Shown: positions 1,256 to 51,312 of the stretch, piece by piece | Numbering within the stretch: position 1 is the first letter of the stretch | How the letters are laid out: each line of letters opens with the position of its first letter | IMG/VR virus record: IMGVR_UViG_2684623011_000001 | Coordinates: 53,091-117,090 of that record | Length of the DNA stretch: 64,000 nt | From: a virus | Lineage: Duplodnaviria; Heunggongvirae; Uroviricota; Caudoviricetes | Strand: one strand, 5' to 3' | The notes under the pieces: model-generated | The model's database searches: none | What the model was told of the DNA's origin: nothing | The model's input: the letters and a program-made list of their open reading frames with translations, nothing else | Made by a program: the position numbers and the translations under genes

Positions 1256-4200
1256 ATGAATAATAAGCGTTGGACACCTCTCCATTTTCATTCGGATGAA
1301 TCAAATGGACTACACTATTTTGAAGTATGCAACAAATATAGTGATTATGTTAAATACTCTGTGGCTCACGGTATTAAATCAATTGCTGTTACTAATCATG
1401 GAACAGTAGCTAATTGGATCTCACATAAACTAGAAGCTGAAAAGGCAGGTCTTAAATTTATTGCCGGTGAAGAAGCTTATGTAACCATGTCTCTAGAAGA
1501 TAAGAGTCGTTATCATACAATCATTCTTGCTAAGAATTATGAAGGTGTAAAAACATTAAATCAGTTGTCTAGTGATTCTTTTAAACCCGATCACTTCTAT
1601 TACAAACCACGTATTACTTTTAACGAATTAAAATCAGCGGTAGAAAAGGGCAATATTTATATAACAACTGCTTGCTTAGCTTCTGGATTAGCACAATCAT
1701 TTCTAAAGCATGATGACGAAACGCATCAATTGTGGGTGGATTTAGCAATTAATAATAAAGAAAACGTGTTTTTAGAAGTCCAGCCTCATAATGATCCTGA
1801 GCAGAAAGTCTACAATCAGCACTTAATAGAACTTGCTGATAAATATGATCTACATCTTATCGCAAGTAATGATATTCATGCATTAGATCCTGAATCTGAT
1901 CGTATTAGAAAAATTATTAAAGAAGGTAAAGGATCAAAGTATGATGACGAAGATAATTTTGAATTATGGTGTAAAACTTATGACGAGATGTTCAGTGACT
2001 TTAAAAAGCAAGGTGTACTAAGCGATACTCAGATAGGTGAATCATTAAACCTTACTAATATTATTGCAGATAGTGTAGAGGAATTTGAATTAGACAGAAG
2101 TCATAAATATCCTCATTTGTATGAGAAACCAGAAAAGGAGTTTCAACGAGTAATTCGTGAAGGAATCCATAAAAGAGGTATAGATAAATTACCAAAAGAA
2201 CAACAAAAAGTTTATGTTGAACGAATCAATCATGAATATAAGATCTATAAGAATAATGGCTCAATAGATTATATGTTAACTGATAAAGCAATGATTGATG
2301 CAGCCAAAGAGCATGGTATTAATGTCTCATATGGACGTGGTTCTGTTTCTGGATCGCTGATTGCATATCTAACGGGTAGTACTGAAATGGACTCAGTTAA
2401 GTATGGATTAAGCTTCGAACGTTTTATGAATCCAGAGCGTATATCACTTGCGGACGTTGATCACGATTGGTTTTCAGAAGATAAAGAATGGATTCAACAA
2501 TGGTTGCTAACTAATAATCAATGGCACGCTGCTTCTATTTTGACGTTAAATACTTATGGACTTAAAGGAGCAATTAAAGCAATTGCTGATGGAATGCCGA
2601 GATACAAAGGAAAGCCAGCTTATATTCAATCTATTCGTAATCAAATAGGTGATGACGGCTTTATCCCGACTGCTCTATATGAGGAACATCAAGAATTAAT
2701 TGATTTAGCAAAAAAGATTGTTGGAGTTGTGGATTCATTCGGACGACATGCTGCTGGAATAGTTGTAAATACTGATACGATTGAAGATACTATGGGAACT
2801 ATGCGAGTCACTGGGTGGAATTATGCTGTGTCTCAAATAACTATGCACGATATTGAATATTGTGGCTGGGTTAAGTACGATGTGTTAGGACTAGATAATA
2901 TAGGGCTAATCTCACGTACCACTGAATTAGCAGGGATTCCATTCCCCACACCAGATAGTGATTTTATTGATTTTGAAGACGAAGCCGTATGGAATTCAAT
3001 GAGAGAAAACAACATTGGTGTATTCCAAATGGAAGGTGATCGTGCTGGTAAATTACTGAGTGATATGTTATCTCCAGAAACTATTCGGAATATTCGTTCT
3101 AATGAAGCTGGTAAAGATGTTAAGTATATGGACTTGTTAAGCTTGGTTAATGCTGCTCAAAGGCCATCAGGTGCCTCGTATGTTGATGCGGTTACTCATG
3201 GACGATTTAAGGATAATGATCATCCTGCGTTAAACAAGTTCTTAGCACCTACTCTTGGGAATCTTGTTTATCAGGAACAATTGATTCAGTTCTTAGTAGA
3301 ATTTTGCGGACGAAGTGCAGGTGAGGCAGACGTTCTCAGACGTGCGGTGGGCCATAAGATCAAGTCGGTCATTGACGAAGAAGTTCCAAAAATCCATAAA
3401 GACTTTCTTAATACTATGGTTACAAAATACAATGATTCACAAGAACATGCCGAAAAAATAGCCGATGATTTCATTCAAGTTTTCATGGACGCAGCCAATT
3501 ATGGTTTCTCCATCAATCATTCAATGGCCTATTCGTATATTGGTTATATTTCGACTTGGTTGCGTTATTACTACCCATTGGAATGGTGTACGGCAGCCTT
3601 CCAAATTTGGGAGGGCAAGCAAGATAAGTTAAATAAGGTAGTAAATTTTGCAAAAGAGCAAGGTATTGAGTTAAAACCTGTAAAATTTCGTAAGTCAAAA
3701 GGGAATTACTTTCTAGATAAATCTGATAAATTTATCTATGAAGGAACCGCTTCAATCAAGGGTGTTAACGGCTCTGATGGAGATGAGCTATACTTATTGC
3801 GCGATAAGGAATATGGCACATTTACCGATTTATTAATCGATATTTATGATAGTAAGAAAGTGAAGTATAAAAGTAATGGTATATATGTAAACGTTGATAT
3901 GAATACCATTTATAACAATTTACCAGAAGAGAAAATTAAGCTGATTGATAAATCAATCGCCAAGTCTGATGGTAGGTACGAACAAATGATCACAAAACCG
4001 ATTGACATAGTTTCATCTCATGTGATAAGTTTAATTTTGTTAAATTTCTTTGAAGAATTTGGAAAACCGAAGAAATTAATTCAAGTTTATGAGTTCTTCA
4101 AAAAGAATTACAAGCCTAATAATAAACGCTTACTAGGTAAATGCCAAAAATATAAAGCTTGCGTTTTGTATGAGAAACAACTTAAAGATGAAGATTACCC

Positions 4201-4525
4201 ATTATCTACTCAATTACAAAATGAATTTAAGCTTTTAGGACGTTGTATTACAAAGTCACCTAGTACGCCGGGAGGTTATGCGTTTATAACCGATGTGGTA
4301 ATGCGATCGAATAAGGCGGTTGTTAAACTCTATTCGATCAAGAAAGGAGTAGAAGTTCAATGCTTTGTATCAATAAGGGATTATGAACAAAGTCATTTGA
4401 ATAAAGGAAATATTATTAAAATTAATTCAGTATATAAGCGACCGAAAATGACAAAACAAAATGGTACATGGATTAGAACAAAAACAAATGAGCTATGGTT
4501 GAATAGTTTTACCATAGCTCAATAA
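1256..4525 (+). CDS. DNA polymerase, PHP-domain DnaE (Pol III alpha)-like
   Basis: 1089-aa ORF. N-terminal PHP signature (HFHSDESNGL, VTNHGTVAN). Size and fold-level resemblance to the Pol III alpha catalytic core. First in-frame ATG at 1252 hits a stop, so start set at 1256. Confidence 0.65.
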   Translation: MNNKRWTPLHFHSDESNGLHYFEVCNKYSDYVKYSVAHGIKSIAVTNHGTVANWISHKLEAEKAGLKFIAGEEAYVTMSLEDKSRYHTIILAKNYEGVKTLNQLSSDSFKPDHFYYKPRITFNELKSAVEKGNIYITTACLASGLAQSFLKHDDETHQLWVDLAINNKENVFLEVQPHNDPEQKVYNQHLIELADKYDLHLIASNDIHALDPESDRIRKIIKEGKGSKYDDEDNFELWCKTYDEMFSDFKKQGVLSDTQIGESLNLTNIIADSVEEFELDRSHKYPHLYEKPEKEFQRVIREGIHKRGIDKLPKEQQKVYVERINHEYKIYKNNGSIDYMLTDKAMIDAAKEHGINVSYGRGSVSGSLIAYLTGSTEMDSVKYGLSFERFMNPERISLADVDHDWFSEDKEWIQQWLLTNNQWHAASILTLNTYGLKGAIKAIADGMPRYKGKPAYIQSIRNQIGDDGFIPTALYEEHQELIDLAKKIVGVVDSFGRHAAGIVVNTDTIEDTMGTMRVTGWNYAVSQITMHDIEYCGWVKYDVLGLDNIGLISRTTELAGIPFPTPDSDFIDFEDEAVWNSMRENNIGVFQMEGDRAGKLLSDMLSPETIRNIRSNEAGKDVKYMDLLSLVNAAQRPSGASYVDAVTHGRFKDNDHPALNKFLAPTLGNLVYQEQLIQFLVEFCGRSAGEADVLRRAVGHKIKSVIDEEVPKIHKDFLNTMVTKYNDSQEHAEKIADDFIQVFMDAANYGFSINHSMAYSYIGYISTWLRYYYPLEWCTAAFQIWEGKQDKLNKVVNFAKEQGIELKPVKFRKSKGNYFLDKSDKFIYEGTASIKGVNGSDGDELYLLRDKEYGTFTDLLIDIYDSKKVKYKSNGIYVNVDMNTIYNNLPEEKIKLIDKSIAKSDGRYEQMITKPIDIVSSHVISLILLNFFEEFGKPKKLIQVYEFFKKNYKPNNKRLLGKCQKYKACVLYEKQLKDEDYPLSTQLQNEFKLLGRCITKSPSTPGGYAFITDVVMRSNKAVVKLYSIKKGVEVQCFVSIRDYEQSHLNKGNIIKINSVYKRPKMTKQNGTWIRTKTNELWLNSFTIAQ

Positions 4526-5051: not shown

Positions 5052-6407
5052 ATGAAAATTAAAGAGCTAAAAGAATTATTTAATCAATTGGGTAACACAA
5101 GTTCTAATACGGATAAAATTGCTATCCTAAAAGGTAATAAAGATAAAGAGCTCTTTGTGAAGACGCTTCAGTTCGTATATGATGACTTCATACGGACTGG
5201 AGTTTCTTTTAAGAGCTTAAATAGTAAAATAATAGACTTTAAGGCAGGGGAAATTGATACTGATAGTCAAGGTGAATATTCTCTAGAGTCTCTAATGGAA
5301 TATGTTAAGGAGCATAATACTGGGACACATAGTACTATCATGTTAATTCAGGATTTTGCAAGTATGTTTCCTGACGAAAAGGAATTTATCTACCATATAT
5401 TTGCTAAGGATATCAAAGTGGGTATCACAGCAAAAACTATTAATAAAGCTTTGGGTAAAGGATTTATCCGTGAATTTAGCGTTCAACTTGCACATCCGTA
5501 TCACAAGTATGCAGAAAAAGTTACAGGTAACGAATTTACCTTAACTCAAAAATTGGACGGTCATAGATCTGTATTCATTGTTAAGAATGGCAAGGGGCAA
5601 TTCTATACTCGTAAGGGATTACCTATTCATGGATTAGAGATACAAACCGCAGAAGCTATGAAGCTAGCAGAGGTATTAGGGAATAACGGTTCTATAGATT
5701 ATGTTCTTGATGGCGAACTAGTATTATCTAATGACGACAACTTAAAAACGAAAGATTTATTTAGAGCCACTTCACGTGTTCTGCGTAGTGAAACGGCAGA
5801 TAAAAGTCGAATTCAGTATAATATATTTGATGCTTTACCGACAGAAGAATTTGAACGAGGAAAATCAAAAGATACATTCAAGGTGCGGAAAGACTTTTTG
5901 TCAACTTTTATGGATGCCATCGCATATGATCATCCTGGGTCGCTTAACCATTTACATCTAGTGAAGAACCTTTACAGTGGTTCTGATATTTCAATAATTA
6001 AAAAATTACAACACGACCTTGTTGAAGCAAATGGCTGGGAAGGGCTTATGCTTAATCTTAATAATGAATATTATGTAACCAAGCGAACAAGTGGTTTACT
6101 TAAAATTAAGGAGTTCTTTGATGCTGACGTCTTGGTGAAGGATATATTCGAGGGAACCGGCAAGTTCAAAGGAACCCTTGGCGGAATTATTGCTGACTAT
6201 AAAGGTTATACTATTCGTATTGGTTCTGGATTTACTGACGCTGATAGAGGATATTATTGGAATAATCCAGATGAGATTATTGGCAAGATAGTTGATATTA
6301 GCTATTTTGAAGAAACACACAACCAGAAGAATGATGATATTAGTCTAAGATTTGGAACTTTTATTTCAGTAAGAACTGACAAAGATGAACCCTCATATGA
6401 GGTTTAA
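5052..6407 (+). CDS. ATP-dependent DNA ligase
   Basis: 451 aa. Motif I KLDGHR (TQKLDGHRSVF), EG-motif WEGLMLN, LLKIK motif near C-terminus. Confidence 0.8.
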   Translation: MKIKELKELFNQLGNTSSNTDKIAILKGNKDKELFVKTLQFVYDDFIRTGVSFKSLNSKIIDFKAGEIDTDSQGEYSLESLMEYVKEHNTGTHSTIMLIQDFASMFPDEKEFIYHIFAKDIKVGITAKTINKALGKGFIREFSVQLAHPYHKYAEKVTGNEFTLTQKLDGHRSVFIVKNGKGQFYTRKGLPIHGLEIQTAEAMKLAEVLGNNGSIDYVLDGELVLSNDDNLKTKDLFRATSRVLRSETADKSRIQYNIFDALPTEEFERGKSKDTFKVRKDFLSTFMDAIAYDHPGSLNHLHLVKNLYSGSDISIIKKLQHDLVEANGWEGLMLNLNNEYYVTKRTSGLLKIKEFFDADVLVKDIFEGTGKFKGTLGGIIADYKGYTIRIGSGFTDADRGYYWNNPDEIIGKIVDISYFEETHNQKNDDISLRFGTFISVRTDKDEPSYEV

Positions 6408-6492
6408 TTTTGATGTTTTTATAGTCAATTAATAGACTTTTTATAAAGTAATCAATATACTAAACTAGTAAATTAAAGGGGGAATCTAATCC

Positions 6493-6975
6493 TTGAAACA
6501 AAAAGCAGGAACATGGTTTGGTGAGAAAACTCATTATAAGGACTATGTATTTGACTCCAAGAAAGAAGAAGCATTTTTTAGAGGATTTATAGAGAATTCT
6601 GGATATAAGTTTGATGTACATAAGAGCTTTAAGCTTCATCCGATTATTGAAATGTGTAATGGCGTTTTGAAACTAAGAAGTAGTAGTTATGCTCCTGATT
6701 TTGTTTTATACGATGACAAGGGCAATATCTCCCACGTAATAGATGTTAAAAATAGTTTTACATCATTTGCTATTGATTCAGCTGCGGCTCTTAGATTTAA
6801 ACTCTTTGCGTTGAAATATAAGATTCCAGTTGAAGTTGTAGTTCCGCGTGTTAAATCTTTTCGAGTAAAGATAATGGGAACAACAAAGAAGTTCGAACCA
6901 ATTGTAAAGTATGACTTTAACTATAACGTCAACGATTTAGTTGGTGAAGCATACGAAGGGAATGCTACTCGTTAA
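6493..6975 (+). CDS. hypothetical protein, possible PD-(D/E)XK nuclease fold
   Basis: 160 aa. TTG start with a GGGGG RBS. PDFVLY...IDVKN resembles the (P)D-(D/E)xK pattern. Confidence 0.4.
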   Translation: MKQKAGTWFGEKTHYKDYVFDSKKEEAFFRGFIENSGYKFDVHKSFKLHPIIEMCNGVLKLRSSSYAPDFVLYDDKGNISHVIDVKNSFTSFAIDSAAALRFKLFALKYKIPVEVVVPRVKSFRVKIMGTTKKFEPIVKYDFNYNVNDLVGEAYEGNATR

Positions 6976-7030
6976 TGATTAGATGACACGGGTTACTTTC
7001 AACAACAATTCACGGAAAGGATGAAACAAT

Positions 7031-7348
7031 TTGGCTTCAATTTGGGAAAAGACATTTGGTAAACGAAATGCTAAGAAAAACGTTGCCCGAGAATTGTCTG
7101 AAAAGATTATTGAATACAAAAATGACTATGGTTACGAAACAATTGCAGAAGCAGTGGTTCAAGTAGGTAATTCATACGAATTTGCTAAAGATATGGATCA
7201 CGCAGCTCCAATTTATGCAGTATGGAGAAGTGCCAAGGAGCTAAATGTACTTGATATGGCCGTTATGAGAGCCATTACTGAACAGGATAAATATGAAGAT
7301 GAATCTGATGATAACGATGATTCGAGTGCAGCTTTAGCAACAGCTTAG
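7031..7348 (+). CDS. hypothetical protein with acidic C-terminus
   Basis: 105-aa ORF ending DESDDNDDSSAALATA. Confidence 0.45.
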   Translation: MASIWEKTFGKRNAKKNVARELSEKIIEYKNDYGYETIAEAVVQVGNSYEFAKDMDHAAPIYAVWRSAKELNVLDMAVMRAITEQDKYEDESDDNDDSSAALATA

Positions 7349-7369
7349 TTTAGTAAAAGGTGGATTTTA

Positions 7370-7639
7370 TTGAAAGATTGGTTAAAGAACAACAAGTATA
7401 AAATTATCATTTTACCTGCGGTTTTATTAGTTGGAATCTTTATTGGTACTTGCACTAATAAGACAGTATATGCAGATGAAGACTCACCATTAAAGTCAAT
7501 TGGTGGTTGGGCGTTTATTTACCGTTCAGGACTAGCTGTAGATAAAGAAACCCATGTTCAATACATTGTGGTAAAGAATGGCGACGGCATCTCTGTTACT
7601 CCACGGTTAAACGCAAATGGAAAGCCAATGACAAAATAA
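7370..7639 (+). CDS. small membrane/secreted protein
   Basis: 89 aa. TTG start after an AAGGTGG RBS. N-terminal hydrophobic segment. Confidence 0.45.
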   Translation: MKDWLKNNKYKIIILPAVLLVGIFIGTCTNKTVYADEDSPLKSIGGWAFIYRSGLAVDKETHVQYIVVKNGDGISVTPRLNANGKPMTK

Positions 7640-7660
7640 ATTTTAAGGAGAATTAATTAA

Positions 7661-7803
7661 ATGACAGGATTAAAAGCACAAATTAAGAAGTATTTACGTA
7701 GTAACGGAATCAACATGATTACTAACGATCAAGGTCGTTCAATTCGTTTGGGTAATGCGAAGACACAAGATTTACTCAAGGTAGCAGTAAAGCATGGCTT
7801 TTA
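7661..7803 (+). CDS. small hypothetical protein (47 aa)
   Basis: ATG preceded by a strong TAAGGAG RBS. Not in the supplied track because it is under 60 aa. Confidence 0.3.
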
Positions 7804-8021
7804 ACATAGTAGAATGGCTGGCTGAAAAACAGCTTTATTTCCAAAGTGGCTGCAAATATACATAGTTCTAATTGCTTCTGTTGGTTTATTTGCATTAATA
7901 CCAGTGTTAATTGCGTTGCCAATATGGGTAATTTTTCATGGGAACATAGTGCTTGGTATTATTTTAGCCATTTTTGTAAGTGGACCACTCATGACGGTAT
8001 TACTCACGGGGGAAGAGAGTG

Positions 8022-15121: not shown

Positions 15122-15264
15122 TTTGCTTATTTTTAGTTAAGAAGTGTTATTTGTTTGTAATAACACTTCCTAATTATCGCTATTTTAGCATCTATTTTTA
15201 TGATAAAATAAAGAGGTGTTATAATTCTATATATCAAAAAATAACACTAGTATTAGGTGGTTTT

Positions 15265-15858
15265 ATGAAACAGTTAGTCTTGCCTATAAAAGACTCTTAT
15301 GTGTTATCTGAAGTACAAGATACGTTATTAAATAACTTTAAATCTGGTGTTAGAAATTACACTATTTTCCAAGTCGGAAAGGCAACCTTACTTCGAGTAA
15401 GTGACGTACTCAGATTGAAACAGGAAGATGTCTATGATAAATATGGTGAGGTAAAAAGAAACGCATTTATTAAAGATAAGAAAACGGGCAAGCAAAATAC
15501 ATTGTATTTAAAACCTGTCCGTGAGGATTTAGAGAATTATAAAAAATGGTTAGAAGAAAATAATTATTATCAAACTACGCCCTGGCTATTTCCATCGACT
15601 ACCAGACCAAATAAACATATCGATGAAAGAAGATATTATACGATTATGCATAAAGTTGGAGATCTCCTGGACATTCCATATCTGGGAACACACACCATGA
15701 GAAAGACTGGAGCATATCGAGTTTACGTACAGAGTAATTATAATATCGGATTAGTTATGTCATTACTCAACCATTCATCAGAAGAAATGACTTTGAGATA
15801 TTTGGGGCTAGACCAAGTGTCTCGAGAAAGACTATTAGATAAAATTAATTTCGGATAA
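15265..15858 (+). CDS. small tyrosine recombinase (integrase-family catalytic domain)
   Basis: Start at MKQLVL after an AGGTGG RBS. R (LLRVSDVLRLK) ... GTHTMRKTGAYRVY (H-x-x-R, Y) catalytic signature. Confidence 0.6.
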   Translation: MKQLVLPIKDSYVLSEVQDTLLNNFKSGVRNYTIFQVGKATLLRVSDVLRLKQEDVYDKYGEVKRNAFIKDKKTGKQNTLYLKPVREDLENYKKWLEENNYYQTTPWLFPSTTRPNKHIDERRYYTIMHKVGDLLDIPYLGTHTMRKTGAYRVYVQSNYNIGLVMSLLNHSSEEMTLRYLGLDQVSRERLLDKINFG

Positions 15859-17051: not shown

Positions 17052-17441
17052 TTGAAAGGACCAATTTTAAATCCTACTAAAAAATTATTACGAAGAGCCA
17101 ATAGAAAAATAGAAGAAATATACAATCCACGAAAAAAACAAGCTCTATTCGTGTTCACTACTAATCTTGACGGCTATCATCTTACCTATAAAATGAGTTT
17201 AGATACTTTTGCCGCCTTGGGAACGGCAATCTCTCCTGTTATGATAAGTGAAATTCCTGCTAAAGATATAGATAGCAAAGAATATATTTTATTTCTCTTT
17301 TCTATTTACAATAAATGGAACAGGTTACCCATGGTTTTTAGAGGGTATACTCCAGACCAGGTTAAATGGTTTATGAAGAAATTCGGAAATAGAATATATA
17401 ATGAGAAATCTACGGTTGACTGGTGGCGTAATACTTATTAA
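17052..17441 (+). CDS. hypothetical protein
   Basis: 129-aa ORF. Confidence 0.5.
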   Translation: MKGPILNPTKKLLRRANRKIEEIYNPRKKQALFVFTTNLDGYHLTYKMSLDTFAALGTAISPVMISEIPAKDIDSKEYILFLFSIYNKWNRLPMVFRGYTPDQVKWFMKKFGNRIYNEKSTVDWWRNTY

Positions 17442-17704
17442 ATAGCTATTTTGGTGTTATAATATAATTGGAGTATTATACATCGCACAGTTAAAACATA
17501 ATAAAAAATAGGTATCTATCATTACCTCAATTGTGAAGTATTTAATAGATACCTTTTTATTATTTCTATCAATTATCCTCTTGCGCAGTACACAAACCAC
17601 CAATTTTATCATAACACTGAAATAATACTATGATCAAGTAGAACAAATAGGGTATAATATACCTAGTTACTATTTAAAGTAACTATTTTCATCTTCATTG
17701 AAGC

Positions 17705-17741
17705 TCCAGGACATCTTCCCAGTCCTGGACTTCTTTTTTTT
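17705..17741 (+). terminator. rho-independent terminator (tccaggac ... gtcctgga, T8)
   Basis: Stem-loop plus T-run. Overlaps the stop of the convergent minus-strand gene. Confidence 0.55.
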
Positions 17742-18261
17742 ATCTGAATCCATAAAGAAACTGAACATACGAAAAAGAAGTTACCATATTGTCTCCAAAT
17801 CCATCTAACATGTTTTTATTATCCAAGATAGGATATACCTTAATTCTCAATCCGATTAGTTCCTTATCAGAAAAACTGTCTAAATGTTCATATACAGCTC
17901 GTGGTGAAGTAAACCATGTAGACTCTAAGTCTTTTACAACCTCGAACTTATAGTTGATTAGATGAACTTCAATGTTTTCCTTGCGTTTAATAGTTACTCG
18001 GAGCTTTCTAGAGAACTTCCATTCACCATATTTCATTCGTCCATGCATAGGTATTGATTGTTCTTGTCTTAAAGCAATCCACTTCTTGATTTGCATTCCC
18101 TTAGGGCGTGGCTGAAATTTCATAGTTCGTGCAAACTTTTCTTTTAATTGTTCTCTAGTCAAACTAGTTGATTTACGTTCTAATTCCTTAATTCGTTTTT
18201 GTAATTGTTCATATTCTTGCATTTCTTCTGGGGATAAATTTAATTTATTCATATTTTTCAC
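17740..18261 (-). CDS. hypothetical protein, left copy of an inverted paralog pair
   Basis: 173 aa. Basic coiled-coil N-terminus (LSPEEMQEYEQLQKRIKELERKS). Roughly 60 percent identical to the 18851-19390 product. Confidence 0.6.
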   Translation of the reverse strand: MKNMNKLNLSPEEMQEYEQLQKRIKELERKSTSLTREQLKEKFARTMKFQPRPKGMQIKKWIALRQEQSIPMHGRMKYGEWKFSRKLRVTIKRKENIEVHLINYKFEVVKDLESTWFTSPRAVYEHLDSFSDKELIGLRIKVYPILDNKNMLDGFGDNMVTSFSYVQFLYGFR

Positions 18262-18497
18262 CTCAAAAAAAATATATCATACTCAGATTAAAAAGTACGC
18301 AAATTTCAGTAATTGCTGAAAATGAAGTGAAATGCAGAAATTTTTGAAATTCTATTGACATCTTCATTTACAATACTAACTTTATAAAACATTCATTTTA
18401 TTTAATCAAAGTAGGACATGTATGTAGTATTGACGGAAAAGCAATTAGAACTGGTACAAAGCATTAAATTTAAGTGTGTGTTTTATTGACAATTTAT

Positions 18498-18526
18498 AGT
18501 TAATAATGTACTGTACTAGTGTACAG
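18498..18526 (+). promoter_or_regulatory. sigma-70-like promoter (TTGACA, 17-nt spacer, TACTGT)
   Basis: Consensus -35, 17-bp spacer and a TAnnnT -10, located in the spacer between the inverted paralogs. Confidence 0.4.
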
Positions 18527-18533
18527 AAAAAGC

Positions 18534-18643
18534 AATTACGATTTTTGCCTTTACGTAATTGCCCTCAATGCTAAACCACATTGCTGTGCGTCTTGATTGT
18601 ACCTTGCTTGACGGAGCAAGGTTTTTTTATTTTAAATTTTTAA
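18534..18643 (+). ncRNA. putative small RNA (about 105 nt) with a 9-bp hairpin (gcaattacg/cgtaattgc) and an intrinsic terminator
   Basis: Promoter upstream. Perfect hairpin at 18544-18573. Terminator ccttgct-tgacgg-agcaagg plus T7 at 18614-18640. No ORF. Confidence 0.4.
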
Positions 18644-18850
18644 TTAATGGTAGCGAATAAAGGTTGTTTCTTCAATGTAACAGTATTTTTTGTCGCATTA
18701 AAACAAAAATTTTAATGACTGGTTAACAACGGATAATATACTCCCTATTTTGTCAATAGAACTTCAATAATTTCTGAAATTTAACACGATTTCAGTGATT
18801 ACTAAAATTGTCGTACTTTTCGACAAGTCTATGATATATTTATTGTCGAG

Positions 18851-19390
18851 GTGAACGACATGGAAAAACAAAATTTAACCCCGGAAGAATTACTAGAATA
18901 TAAGCAATTAAAAACAAGAATTAAAGAGCTTGAACGCAAATCAAATGGTTTAACCCGAAAGCAACTAAAAGAAAAATTTGCAAAGATTATGAAATTTAAC
19001 CCTCGTCCTAAAGGTATGCGTATTAAAAAATGGCAAGAGTCGAGACGTAAGTCTGCAATAACAATGCACGGACAAATGAAGTATGGGGAATGGGCTTTTT
19101 CAAGGAAATTTAGAGTAACCATTAAGTATAAAAAGACTATAGAACTCTATTCAATCACCTACAGCTTTGAAGTATTGCACGGGAATGAACGTTTATTATT
19201 TACATCAGCTAAAGCAGTTTATAATTACCTTGACAAACTCTCCAAAAAAGAATTAATAGGACTTCGTATTCAGGTATATCCTTTATTAGATAACAAAAAT
19301 ATGCTTGACGGTTTTGGTCATATAATGGTAGCGTCTTATTCTTATGTTGGTTTTCTCTACCATGATAGTGGCATCTATAATTCTCTATAA
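18851..19390 (+). CDS. hypothetical protein, right copy of the inverted paralog pair
   Basis: 179 aa. MEKQNLTPEELLEYKQLKTRIKELERKS... paralog of 17740-18261. Its upstream region is also inverted-repeated with that of the left copy. Confidence 0.6.
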   Translation: MNDMEKQNLTPEELLEYKQLKTRIKELERKSNGLTRKQLKEKFAKIMKFNPRPKGMRIKKWQESRRKSAITMHGQMKYGEWAFSRKFRVTIKYKKTIELYSITYSFEVLHGNERLLFTSAKAVYNYLDKLSKKELIGLRIQVYPLLDNKNMLDGFGHIMVASYSYVGFLYHDSGIYNSL

Positions 19391-19465
19391 AATAAAAAGC
19401 CCAGGAATAACCTGGACTCTGGGAAAAATAAGATACTTTATCATTGGAGAAGTATCTTATCTTTA

Positions 19466-20067: not shown

Positions 20068-20154
20068 TTGCCGTTGAGTGTTTTCCAAGCTTTGATGCTT
20101 ATGCTAACGTTTGGTAGCTTCATTGTTGCTTTATTAGCTTACATCAAAAAGTAG
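20068..20154 (+). CDS. holin-like toxin (Hol_Tox family) type-I-toxin-like peptide, 28 aa
   Basis: LSVFQALMLMLTFGSFIVALLAYIKK matches the Hol_Tox consensus pattern (ALqLMl-FG-f-valla-I-K). Start codon uncertain: TTG at 20068 or ATG at 20095. Followed by terminator hairpins. Confidence 0.35.
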   Translation: MPLSVFQALMLMLTFGSFIVALLAYIKK

Positions 20155-20264: not shown

Positions 20265-20294
20265 GAGTCGTGCTACCAACGCGACTCTTTTTTA
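20265..20294 (+). terminator. rho-independent terminator
   Basis: gagtcg ... cgactc plus TTTTTT. Confidence 0.55.
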
Positions 20295-20389: not shown

Positions 20390-20671
20390 TTATGCTGCTT
20401 GCTCCATTTTAGTTAACTTAGTCCTCATCATTGCGGCTGCATGGCAATAAATTTCGTAACAAGGATCATCTTTTTCAAAGATTAATGCTTCGTTTAAATT
20501 TGGCGTTAAATATACTTCATTAACCTCAACGTTAGACGTTTTCATACCAAATCTACTCGTTAGTTGCTTGCCATCAACTCCACATACATATAACTGTCCA
20601 ACCTTGATTAAATAAAATGTCTCTTTTATAAGGATCACCGTTCCTCTCTTGGGGTATCTAAATAGTCCCAC
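20390..20671 (-). CDS. hypothetical protein
   Basis: 93-aa ORF. Confidence 0.45.
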   Translation of the reverse strand: MGLFRYPKRGTVILIKETFYLIKVGQLYVCGVDGKQLTSRFGMKTSNVEVNEVYLTPNLNEALIFEKDDPCYEIYCHAAAMMRTKLTKMEQAA

Positions 20672-50259: not shown

Positions 50260-51312
50260 TTAAAAAGTTAAATGAAATTTACTTCCTGTTCTCATAATCG
50301 TATTTTCAATTTCTGGTTGAGAGTGGATAATCATCAATAGTTGTTCTTTTGATAAGTCGTCTATCTTGTCAGCGTCAAAATTCTCTGTTAAGATTGCTGT
50401 TCCCATATGATTAGGATCTTCTTGTTGATGAATATAATTTTCAGTTGTGCTTACACTTTCGTGATCACAAAAATCACGTACCAATAAAATGTCTTTTGTT
50501 TGAGCATATAGAGTCGTAGCAGCCCCCGCTTTTAGTGAGTGAATGACTAGGTGACGTCCCTTCTTTTCACTAAATTGTTTAAAGAAACTTCTTAGGCTAT
50601 GTTGGCTCAATTCATCAAATAATTTTTCATCTTTATTATTTCGATAAAAAATTCTATGCAGCTTATCATAATAAGCTCTAGTTAAGTACTTAGTATTTAA
50701 CTTTGATCCTTTATCAAGAACTTCTAATTGCGCCCAATCTCCACCATACGGAGAATTCATTAAAGTGAAATCACTCCAAGTAATGTTAAAAGTTGCGGTA
50801 ACACGAATTCCTGTTTTGTACATAAAATCAATTAACATGGCATACTTTTCTCCAGCGTTATCCACTTTTGTATTGAAATAATTTTTACCCTTTAACCATT
50901 CCTCCATTTCATTTAAGTCCGTCAGCGAAATGGGTTCATAATGTTCTACATTATTCATGCCCAAACTTTGAACCTTAAAAACATCATTAGAGATTGAACT
51001 CATGTTTAACCCCGGAAAAATTTTCTCTTTACGAATAATGTTTAAGTACGACCGCATAGCAATAAGGTGCGATTTAATAGTAGAATCCTTAATGTCTTTA
51101 TCTCGTAGCGGCTTAACAAATTTATTAATTGTGTCACTATATCGTAAATTCTCAAAATCATCTCTTGTCAGTTCATCTGGTTTTTTACCAAAAACCAGAT
51201 CGCAATATATCTCCACAGAACCAGTATATTTCTTTAACGTATTTGGTGAATTAATAGAATTTTTCCACGTTAAATATGCAACTAATATGTCTTTCATATT
51301 TGAGACCTCCAT
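50260..51312 (-). CDS. tyrosine recombinase / integrase family
   Basis: N-terminal SAM-like core-binding domain. TGIRVTA (R). HSLKAGAATTLY. Signature DHESVSTTENYIH. Confidence 0.7.
   Translation of the reverse strand: MEVSNMKDILVAYLTWKNSINSPNTLKKYTGSVEIYCDLVFGKKPDELTRDDFENLRYSDTINKFVKPLRDKDIKDSTIKSHLIAMRSYLNIIRKEKIFPGLNMSSISNDVFKVQSLGMNNVEHYEPISLTDLNEMEEWLKGKNYFNTKVDNAGEKYAMLIDFMYKTGIRVTATFNITWSDFTLMNSPYGGDWAQLEVLDKGSKLNTKYLTRAYYDKLHRIFYRNNKDEKLFDELSQHSLRSFFKQFSEKKGRHLVIHSLKAGAATTLYAQTKDILLVRDFCDHESVSTTENYIHQQEDPNHMGTAILTENFDADKIDDLSKEQLLMIIHSQPEIENTIMRTGSKFHLTF

Follow-up and report, generated by a model that had tools for sequence, protein, structure and literature searches.

[quoted passage not shown] A described example is bsrG/SR4 (PMC3834814), and the same 3'-overlap class includes yonT/SR6 (PMC5848175) and txpA/RatA (reviewed in PMC6562991). 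An RNA antitoxin can also be carried by a phage in the absence of a toxin gene: pseudo-ToxI of phage PhiTE mimics an RNA antitoxin and overcomes the type III system ToxIN (PMC3475682).

Both kinds of system can be compared with the window, the 64,000-nt stretch of DNA from a large Limosilactobacillus reuteri phage that was analysed here, where a small RNA gene lies between two inverted paralogous genes (A and B). The RNA has relatives in L. reuteri prophages, next to a gene for a membrane protein. By sequence, these prophage modules are like bsrG/SR4, yonT/SR6 and txpA/RatA: a small membrane-protein gene and an RNA gene of about 100 nt are convergent, with transcripts predicted to overlap at their 3' ends, the module is prophage-borne, and the protein gene has a 5' UTR capable of sequestering the Shine-Dalgarno box (L105, L102, L162, L166, L168). 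They differ from the B. subtilis modules in having no sequence relationship to them (no Rfam or Pfam match) and in the protein, which is longer (70-79 aa) with a hydrophobic membrane helix at its C-terminus. In addition, the window keeps only the RNA half, the protein gene being deleted. Like PhiTE, the window phage carries a homologue of a host/prophage RNA antitoxin, in its case a putative one, without the toxin. However, the window RNA would act as an antisense, while ToxI is repetitive, binds a protein toxin, and had its function shown by genetics (PMC3475682).

The inverted genes and their mirrored upstream regions

Gene A (17740-18252, minus strand) and gene B (18860-19390, plus strand) encode basic proteins of 170 and 176 aa, stop codons included, and A is a monocistronic unit. 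Shine-Dalgarno boxes (GAGGTGA) lie at 18258-18264 (reverse complement, A) and 18848-18854 (B). From their positions, ATG 18252 and ATG 18860 are the start codons and the GTGs further upstream are not. The pair had been recognised in the initial annotation, but its limits there (17740-18261 and 18851-19390, 175 aa each) had to be corrected at the starts and in length. The paralogy also stands, at a measured protein identity of 67% (112/167, E 1e-82) in place of "about 60 percent". Directly after the B stop codon a terminator hairpin (19396-19420, minus strand) closes the minus-strand gene block.

The proteins had been described as of no recognisable family, and the searches agree. Pfam, PHROG, PADLOC and NCBIfam gave no match to A or B, and profile and structural searches gave no significant family or fold match. 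Both proteins have a pI of 9.8-10.0 and their most conserved portion is strongly basic (pI about 11). In protein searches the family was represented by four clusters among 5.8e9 proteins and by three among 1.84e9 representatives. B is 100% identical to an NCBI protein labelled as a Limosilactobacillus reuteri hypothetical protein. Judged by these searches, A and B form a tiny, lineage-restricted orphan family of basic proteins.

The inverted arms (17753-18360 against 19359-18751) align with 69.1% identity over 611 columns with 5 gaps (E 3e-67). With synonymous sites saturated between A and B (dN 0.26) and a longest common exact run of 12 nt in the arms, the duplication is evidently ancient. 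Among the A alleles of relatives dN/dS is 0.15-0.39. The mirror similarity extends beyond the coding sequences, reaching 108 nt upstream of both start codons, and the non-coding arm parts (18267-18360 and 18751-18844) are 76% complementary. The mirrored upstream regions reported earlier are thus borne out by the self-alignment that had been suggested as a check. The motifs quoted for them are also present in both arms: TGTCAATAGAA at 18751-18761 (plus) and 18350-18360 (minus), CGTACTTTT at 18812-18820 (plus) and 18291-18299 (minus). With 76% identity kept over these 94-108 nt while dS is saturated, the upstream regions are under constraint.

Upstream of A, a putative promoter/operator region (18253-18360, minus strand) occupies the non-coding part of the left arm and contains blocks that are conserved in the family-wide alignment. 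It includes two imperfect, operator-like palindromes of the ATTTCAG-N6-CTGAAAT type (18303-18322 and 18331-18350), 28 bp apart. The corresponding putative region upstream of B (18751-18859, plus strand), likewise conserved, contains the TGTCAATAGAA box, palindromes at 18761-18780 and 18789-18808, the Shine-Dalgarno box, and two promoter-like sites (TTAACA-16-TAAAAT and TTGTCG-16-TATGAT). These four palindromes, two upstream of each gene, are the only good matches in the 64 kb; between the two arms of the duplication they differ in the spacer and in their own arms. In the family-wide alignment (A, B, P0004, P0005) the TTGTCAATAG box, the palindrome half-sites and the Shine-Dalgarno box are all kept. 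The B module also has a distal upstream element (18686-18750, plus strand), which holds the palindrome CATTAAAA-N6-TTTTAATG, and a copy of this element is found upstream of A in relatives that possess A only. The TTGTCAATAG box and TATGATAT were considered as phage-wide promoter motifs and rejected, as neither is convincingly enriched away from the locus. A and B would each be transcribed from a sigma-A-type promoter of their own. The shared palindromes suggest co-regulation, most simply by the products of the two genes, and autoregulation is the most economical guess.

The locus in related phages

The locus coincides with a convergent strand switch and with the maximum of the cumulative GC skew. 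Neither megablast nor tblastn matched the locus to any of 50,697 phage records; the DnaE gene alone has distant matches (37%), to large Bacillus siphophages. In most related L. reuteri phages only one of the two genes is present, either A or B, always in the same orientation. The A-only relatives (L009-L023) match the window only up to 18400, with 99.7-99.9% identity over 17401-18400 and divergence thereafter. The B-only relatives (L005-L008) match it only from 18685/18696 (99.3-99.6% to 19508), and distant P0004-type relatives are likewise homologous from there onward. The sole relative with both A and B is L004, which is also the only one sharing the centre between them, in the same orientation as in the window.

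As a whole, the locus is probably best explained as a hypervariable junction with two ancient paralogue cassettes and a patchwork centre that includes a TA-like relic. The plus- and minus-strand gene blocks of the large L. reuteri phage would converge at this junction. A and B would each be a self-contained cassette, in which an ORF is preceded by about 110 nt of conserved promoter/operator sequence. The A type is always found on the minus strand next to the left block, and the B type always on the plus strand next to the right block. In most relatives there is just one of the two cassettes, and the presence of both in the window genome and L004 would produce the picture of an inverted duplication.

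The initial annotation had proposed instead that the inverted pair is a unit controlled by the central small RNA (sRNA), and that the symmetric segment could undergo recombinational inversion as a switch. Site-specific inversion switches are represented by fimS with FimB/FimE, Hin/hix and the Rci shufflons. The locus resembles them in that a segment with outward-facing genes lies between inverted repeats and a tyrosine recombinase gene is nearby; this gene is short (15265-15858, 2.4 kb from the locus) and its orientation differs in L125-L127. The repeats of the window, however, are diverged paralogous genes in place of the short, identical core sites of such switches. Inverted core sites of this kind, identical or nearly so, are absent from arms which are only 69% identical, with the longest exact match and the saturated dS given above, and in which even the palindrome spacers differ. 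The recombinase has its own perfect 11-7-11 palindrome (15141-15169), which is its likely site; this is single-copy and absent from the arms, and the idea of a recombinase site there was rejected. In about 25 related contigs A and B keep their usual orientation relative to the flanks throughout, no inversion isomers were seen among them, and protein searches found no A/B chimeras. The DNA of the A/B locus does not look invertible.

The position of the locus also allows a different function to be considered. A and B could be DNA-binding proteins that act on their own palindromes at the point where replication forks, or transcription from the two gene blocks, meet, and would then serve as a fork trap or insulator. 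An analogy is found in B. subtilis, where rtp adjoins the inverted TerI/TerII repeats. The convergent strand switch with its skew maximum, the paired palindromes that occur in the inverted arms and nowhere else, and the strongly basic conserved part of the proteins would all fit such a role. Nevertheless, it is highly improbable: the proteins resemble no DNA-binding or terminator protein in sequence or fold and their structure model is of low confidence, most relatives have one arm only, and gene orientation alone explains the skew pattern.

The central RNA gene and its prophage relatives

The unique centre spans 18361-18750; its existence had been noted correctly, but its size is 390 nt and not roughly 430 bp. 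A predicted promoter on the plus strand (18486-18514) consists of TTGACA (18486-18491), a 17-nt spacer and TACTGT (18509-18514). It is followed by a predicted small non-coding RNA of about 110 nt (18521-18632, plus strand). This RNA has its homologue in the antisense RNA of a type I TA-like module of prophages, and the window contains it as an orphan. Hairpin 1 (18532-18562) has a perfect 9-bp stem (18532-18540 with 18554-18562). The intrinsic terminator (18601-18630, plus strand) has its stem at 18601-18622, followed by a T run, and is kept in the homologues. The promoter, the perfect hairpin and the strong terminator of the initial annotation are therefore all present in the sequence. The RNA (about 112 nt) folds with -31.2 kcal/mol (z = -3.65 against shuffles), and one hairpin 1 pair is changed on both sides in L001. 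On the minus strand, hairpin 1 is followed by TTTTTCTGT; in the prophage relatives such a hairpin with its T run would end the convergent membrane-protein mRNA.

Homologues of the sRNA were found in L105, an L. reuteri 105k prophage whose cassette is 89% identical to the window, in L102 (L. caecicola, 74%), and in L162, L166 and L168. The covariance model score of the sRNA is 122.7 bits. Besides the 5' end and hairpin 1, its most conserved stretch is ACATTGCTGTGCGTCTTGATTGT (18578-18600, plus strand); the 14-nt core ACATTGCTGTGCGT is invariant in six close homologues, with at most three substitutions in the 3' part. The terminator loop is the exact reverse complement of that of L105. Pattern scans of genome, metagenome and viral collections with the hairpin and a conserved 19-mer returned almost exclusively chance matches, the useful ones being L102 and L105. 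Rfam 15 gave no match to the RNA at gathering thresholds, and the best hit of a permissive search was RprA (25.2 bits, where the gathering score is 70; E 1.6).

In five further distinct homologues, all close, the -35 box and its 17-nt spacing to a TAnnAT -10 box are retained, as are the RNA body and the terminator. With these elements kept and with homologue indels that are not multiples of three, the central RNA gene is very likely discrete and non-coding, which agrees with the ORF-free transcript proposed earlier. A 33-aa ORF within the RNA (18559-18660) was rejected as coding on account of the same indels. The -10 box of the window (TACTGT) is the weakest in the sRNA family, so the sRNA may be decaying.

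In every prophage copy a conserved, convergent membrane-protein gene adjoins the sRNA terminator, and in L105, L102, L162, L166 and L168 the stop of its ORF is set against that terminator. The prophage RNA of about 110 nt would be fully antisense to the 3' UTR of this gene, whose mRNA would end at the 5' end of the sRNA. An invariant anti-Shine-Dalgarno stretch lies in the 5' UTR of the gene. In L105 the cassette appears to lie between hicAB-like ORFs, as read from the sequences, and late-regulator/terminase genes; the module was also found in L. reuteri chromosomes. The type I TA label is an architectural call only and the protein is best termed "toxin-like". Both this sRNA/membrane-protein module of L. 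reuteri prophages and the orphan basic-protein family with its conserved palindromic promoters are newly defined and uncatalogued (Rfam, Pfam, PHROGs, NCBIfam, PADLOC).

These relatives also bear on the proposed control of the gene pair by the sRNA. No A-only or B-only relative has the centre, which is shared with L004 only, and the natural partner of the RNA is another gene, the convergent membrane-protein gene of the prophages. Predicted duplexes of the RNA with the translation-initiation regions of A and B rank 64th and 73rd among 78 window genes. With duplex energies this unremarkable and no extended antisense match to the sRNA anywhere in the window, A and B were rejected as targets. The RNA does not appear to control either gene. 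The inverted paralogues, the mirrored regulatory regions with their promoters, and the central RNA gene are supported as described in the initial annotation. Its model of an sRNA-controlled and/or invertible unit is largely refuted by the comparative data and now has very little probability; an attractive but wrong model of the gene pair is thereby removed.

Relics in the centre and possible fate of the orphan RNA

Two other relics were found beside the RNA gene. The first (18381-18452, plus strand) corresponds to the first ~26 codons of an 82/93-aa gene and is inverted relative to the intact copy (20390-20671, minus strand), with 75% nucleotide identity over 72 nt. In tblastn the translation FIKHSFYLIKVGH--VCSIDGKAI was aligned to LIKETFYLIKVGQLYVCGVDGKQL (E 3e-8). 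The second (18644-18668, minus strand), aligned to L105, L166 and L162, comprises the last 5-7 codons (..FIRYH*) of the membrane-protein (toxin-like) gene. These codons are all that the window retains of the protein encoded next to the RNA gene in the prophage relatives: the remainder of the gene and its promoter are missing from the centre, and a tblastn search across the 64-kb window found no other homologue of the gene.

Under the favoured explanation of the locus as a hypervariable junction, the centre is probably a patchwork and not a control region. Its 390 nt would be a leftover of illegitimate recombination, composed of the inverted 5' fragment of the neighbouring gene (20390-20671), the relic of a type I TA-like module acquired from temperate L. 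reuteri prophages, and B's own distal upstream element. The deletion of the partner protein gene in the window would have orphaned the RNA gene.

The orphan RNA is probably still transcribed, and in that case its only obvious targets would be the membrane-protein mRNAs of resident prophages. It could then be kept on purpose as an antitoxin mimic that silences the toxin mRNA in infected lysogens and blocks abortive infection, a strategy with a phage precedent in pseudo-ToxI of PhiTE (PMC3475682). The promoter -35 box, the spacing and the terminators are intact, the toxin-like gene was cleanly removed, and the alignment with an L. reuteri prophage copy contains identical runs of up to ~33 nt. 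The occurrence of the prophage module in L. reuteri chromosomes is also consistent with such a role. Nevertheless, the RNA is carried by only two of about 25 close relatives, its -10 box is degraded to TACTGT, its surroundings are obvious junk fragments, and the toxin/Abi nature of the module is itself putative. A history in which a large L. reuteri phage captured the antisense-RNA half of the prophage module, dropped the toxin gene and retains the RNA as a mimic acting against the lysogens' toxin is rather unlikely. If the orphan RNA is functional, it would exemplify a phage that turns a stolen antisense antitoxin into a means of counter-defence. We know of no earlier antisense (type I) counterpart of the pseudo-ToxI strategy, and the window RNA would be the first if it is such a mimic.

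The distant P0004-type phages have a second, diverged orphan copy of the sRNA at the same junction, their strand switch (L001 7655-7789, 32.6 bits), which hints at retention, not decay. Given this homologue, the RNA may have a longer history in the phage lineage than a recent capture implies.

The convergent junction of this large lactobacillus phage illustrates how cassettes are gathered and eroded, among them orphan genes, Hol_Tox genes, restriction-modification genes and antisense RNA modules. Since Hol_Tox type I toxin genes occur at the same junction in relatives and in the window, it has the appearance of a hotspot that collects small toxin/RNA cassettes. The junction of the relatives also bears MmeI-type restriction-modification and RNA-repair genes. 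In the window the Hol_Tox gene lies at 20074-20154, 680 nt to the right of B and outside the inverted pair; Hol_Tox proteins (PF16935) are holin-like type I toxins unrelated to the 70-79 aa protein of the prophage module.

Genes A and B and their relatives

The locus of the divergent paralogous genes A and B consists of an orphan paralogue pair and the relic of an antisense toxin-antitoxin-like module, located at a phage recombination hotspot. Both parts belong to known kinds. The window represents the part of a large, phage-like Limosilactobacillus reuteri element that is devoted to replication and nucleotide metabolism: the B protein is 100% identical to one that NCBI labels L. reuteri (the longest contig with B is 117 kb), and DnaE (37% identity to large Bacillus siphophages), an ATP-dependent DNA ligase, a RecD2-like helicase and a DnaB-like helicase are all encoded. 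Up to 17441 all genes are plus-strand, from 19466 onward minus-strand; the A/B locus is therefore exactly at the convergent strand switch, at the maximum of the cumulative GC skew. Further into the minus-strand genes, a tmRNA gene (31944-32321, minus; 74 bits, tag peptide ANNHRVTALAA) adjoins a tRNA gene cluster (31550-35574, minus; Ile-TAT, Tyr, Trp and Arg-TCT by ARAGORN, with additional tRNA matches in Rfam).

Gene A (17740-18252, minus; start ATG 18252) encodes 170 aa and gene B (18860-19390, plus; start ATG 18860) 176 aa, both starts being fixed by a GAGGTGA Shine-Dalgarno box. The proteins are basic (pI 9.8-10) and 67% identical (E 1e-82). The initial annotation described an inverted paralogous pair with mirrored upstream regions, and this was borne out. 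One inverted alignment pairs 17753-18360 with 18751-19359 (69.1% over 611 columns, E 3e-67) and reaches 108 nt beyond each start codon on its upstream side; complementarity is 76% in the non-coding part, and the upstream boxes quoted in that annotation are present. Comparing A with B gives a dN of 0.26 and saturation at synonymous sites; A alleles of other contigs have dN/dS of 0.15-0.39. A and B are therefore real genes under constraint, and their separation is old.

Comparison with relatives is what decides the interpretation of the locus. The A-bearing contigs (L009-L023) match window positions 17401-18400 at 93-99.9% and diverge beyond, and contigs with B and no A (L005-L008) match 18685/18696-19508 at 99.3-99.6%. 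Among the relatives both genes and the centre occur together only in L004 (99.75% identity). In every case A converges with the left block's 129-aa gene, and B with the right block. The stretch between the blocks is variable, containing an MmeI-type restriction-modification gene or a polynucleotide kinase/RNA ligase gene depending on the relative; Hol_Tox type I toxin genes and other small membrane peptides are also found there. The A-only and B-only relatives and the variable junction thus indicate that a recombination hotspot harbours A and B as cassettes independent of each other, the symmetry of the window reflecting one of each. They are most likely accessory paralogues, transcribed separately and co-regulated. 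Because the island otherwise carries conflict genes, they are suggested to act in interactions of the phage with its host or with other phages.

In A-only relatives (L016 4900-5049, minus; L009, L020-L022) the counterpart of the centre is occupied by a gene for a 49-aa membrane peptide and by several ORF-free promoter and terminator pairs. Small cassettes for peptides and RNAs seem to accumulate at the junction. In the window, an intact Hol_Tox-type ORF, (M)SVFQALMLMLTFGSFIVALLAYIKK, lies about 680 nt right of B (20074-20154, plus; PF16935, E 2e-13, above the gathering score) and has its own terminator (20265-20287, plus). In many relatives (L005, L009, L016-L020, L022) a member of this family adjoins A or B. 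On the other side, 300 nt separate the 129-aa gene from the 3' end of A (17442-17740, plus); they contain a long hairpin rich in A and T (17500-17519 with 17545-17564), a TATAAT (17653-17658) and a hairpin followed by a T run (17705-17712 with 17722-17729). Taken together, these elements could mark a further short transcript that runs on the plus strand and converges with A.

The A/B family is very small: a word-indexed search of 5.8e9 proteins found four clusters, and searching 1.84e9 representatives exhaustively with a profile found three, the sole addition being P0005. No match was found in Pfam, PHROG, PADLOC, NCBIfam or PDB sequences. Two AlphaFold models, with pLDDT of only 56 and 63, both have two N-terminal helices, a disordered, very basic linker and an alpha/beta C-terminal domain. 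Conservation peaks in the linker (RPKGM..KKW, SRKFRVTIK). As this conserved core is basic, the A/B products are predicted to be probable nucleic-acid binders.

The upstream regions of A and B are better conserved than synonymous sites. When all four types of the family (A, B, P0004, P0005) are aligned, a TTGTCAATAG box, two imperfect palindromes (ATTTCAG-N6-CTGAAAT) at 28-bp spacing, a TATGAT resembling a -10 box, and the Shine-Dalgarno box are retained. In the scanned 64 kb the palindrome is well matched only at 18303, 18331, 18761 and 18789. We infer that a dedicated regulator acts on these palindromes, most simply the A/B products themselves.

The central small RNA and its origin

By its sequence matches, the centre (18361-18750) is a patchwork. 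A diverged in-frame remnant (18381-18452) corresponds to the first ~26 codons of an 82/93-aa gene (E 3e-8) that is intact at 20390-20671 on the opposite strand; as read from the sequences, its junction with the A flank is apparently within a short common CATTTTA stretch. The small RNA (sRNA) cassette (18481 to ~18668) shares 89% identity with part of an L. reuteri 105k prophage (L105), and from transcription start to terminator it has 74% identity to a Limosilactobacillus caecicola contig (L102). The distal upstream element of B (18686-18750) accompanies B in every B-bearing relative, including distant P0004-type phages.

The claimed elements of the sRNA gene are all there: the promoter (TTGACA at 18486-18491, 17 nt, TACTGT), a perfect 9-bp hairpin (hairpin 1, 18532-18540 with 18554-18562) and a terminator (18601-18622, then a T run). 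The fold beats shuffled controls (z = -3.65). In six distinct close sequences the -35 box is invariant, and the 17-nt spacer, a TAnnAT -10 box and the terminator are conserved, the TACTGT of the window being the weakest -10 box of the six. The sRNA body is nearly invariant, with a 14-nt core, ACATTGCTGTGCGT, unchanged in 6/6. The terminator hairpin is the exact reverse complement of that in L105 (5892-5913), keeping the stem and flipping the loop. A 33-aa ORF overlapping the sRNA was rejected as coding, with indels among close homologues that are not multiples of three. No Rfam family matched the sRNA.

A covariance model built from the six sRNAs detected a diverged seventh at the strand switch of the P0004-type phages (L001 7655-7789, minus; 32.6 bits). 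With this copy, five pairs have changes on both sides (equalled in 5 of 500 shuffles; slid controls 0-2); because the alignment was fitted to the model, this test lends modest support. The L001 copy lies directly 3' of the stop codon of a 120-aa gene, has one hairpin 1 pair altered on both sides, and has no adjacent membrane-protein gene.

In L105, L102 and the prophage variants L162, L166 and L168 (reached via the protein neighbouring the sRNA), the stop codon of a conserved convergent gene abuts the sRNA terminator. This gene encodes a protein of 70-79 aa with a C-terminal hydrophobic helix. On the opposite strand hairpin 1 is followed by TTTTTCTGT, and would terminate the membrane-protein mRNA at the sRNA 5' end; the sRNA would therefore be fully antisense to the mRNA 3' UTR. 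The gene has an extended -10 promoter and an invariant 5' UTR element, ACCTCTTACTGTGCG, that could base-pair with the Shine-Dalgarno region, CACAGG(G)AGG. B. subtilis prophages have type I toxin-antitoxin modules of this 3'-overlapping architecture, bsrG/SR4 (PMC3834814) and yonT/SR6 (PMC5848175), but there is no sequence relationship and the module is toxin-like by architecture only. The modules adjoin terminase genes in temperate phages. That of L105 is between the terminase genes and an ORF (7314-7859) which, from its sequence alone, we take to be an ArpU-type late regulator; the ~900 nt between the membrane-protein gene and this ORF (6400-7300) contain no convincing ORF.

The window keeps only the last 5-7 codons of the 70-79 aa gene (18644-18668), and tblastn found no other copy in the 64 kb. 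At the sequence level, these comparisons show that the central RNA derives from a prophage type I toxin-antitoxin-like module that lost its protein gene. Its retention as an antisense antitoxin mimic is unlikely; this would parallel pseudo-ToxI of phage PhiTE, a type III antitoxin mimic (PMC3475682).

Proposed sRNA control and inversion

The observation in the initial annotation was confirmed and its interpretation only partly supported, with the exception of sRNA control and inversion. Control of A and B by the sRNA has no support: the sRNA is absent from nearly all genomes with A or B, and its cognate gene is another. Predicted duplexes with the translation-initiation regions of A and B rank only 64th and 73rd of 78 window genes. 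Recombinational inversion fared no better: the arms are too diverged, their longest exact match (12 nt) being insufficient for homologous recombination, about 25 related contigs showed no orientation variant, and protein searches yielded no chimera.

The window does encode a short tyrosine recombinase (15265-15858, plus; 197 aa, catalytic domain only). About 100 nt upstream of it is a perfect 11-7-11 palindrome, GAAGTGTTATT-TGTTTGT-AATAACACTTC (15141-15169), single-copy in the window. Its resemblance to a lox/dif-type core site suggests a system for resolution or circularisation. The recombinase gene of L125, a P0005-type relative, comes with the same arm sequence. A second, full-length tyrosine integrase (350 aa, N-terminal SAM-like domain; 50260-51312, minus) is located within the replication module, and the element carrying it may be temperate or plasmid-like. 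In L125, among the most distant relatives, the short recombinase gene (3663-4256, minus) is inverted relative to the TK-LysM block and adjoins a perfect 16-nt inverted repeat (4269-4284 with 4373-4388) containing the GAAGTGTTATT arm.
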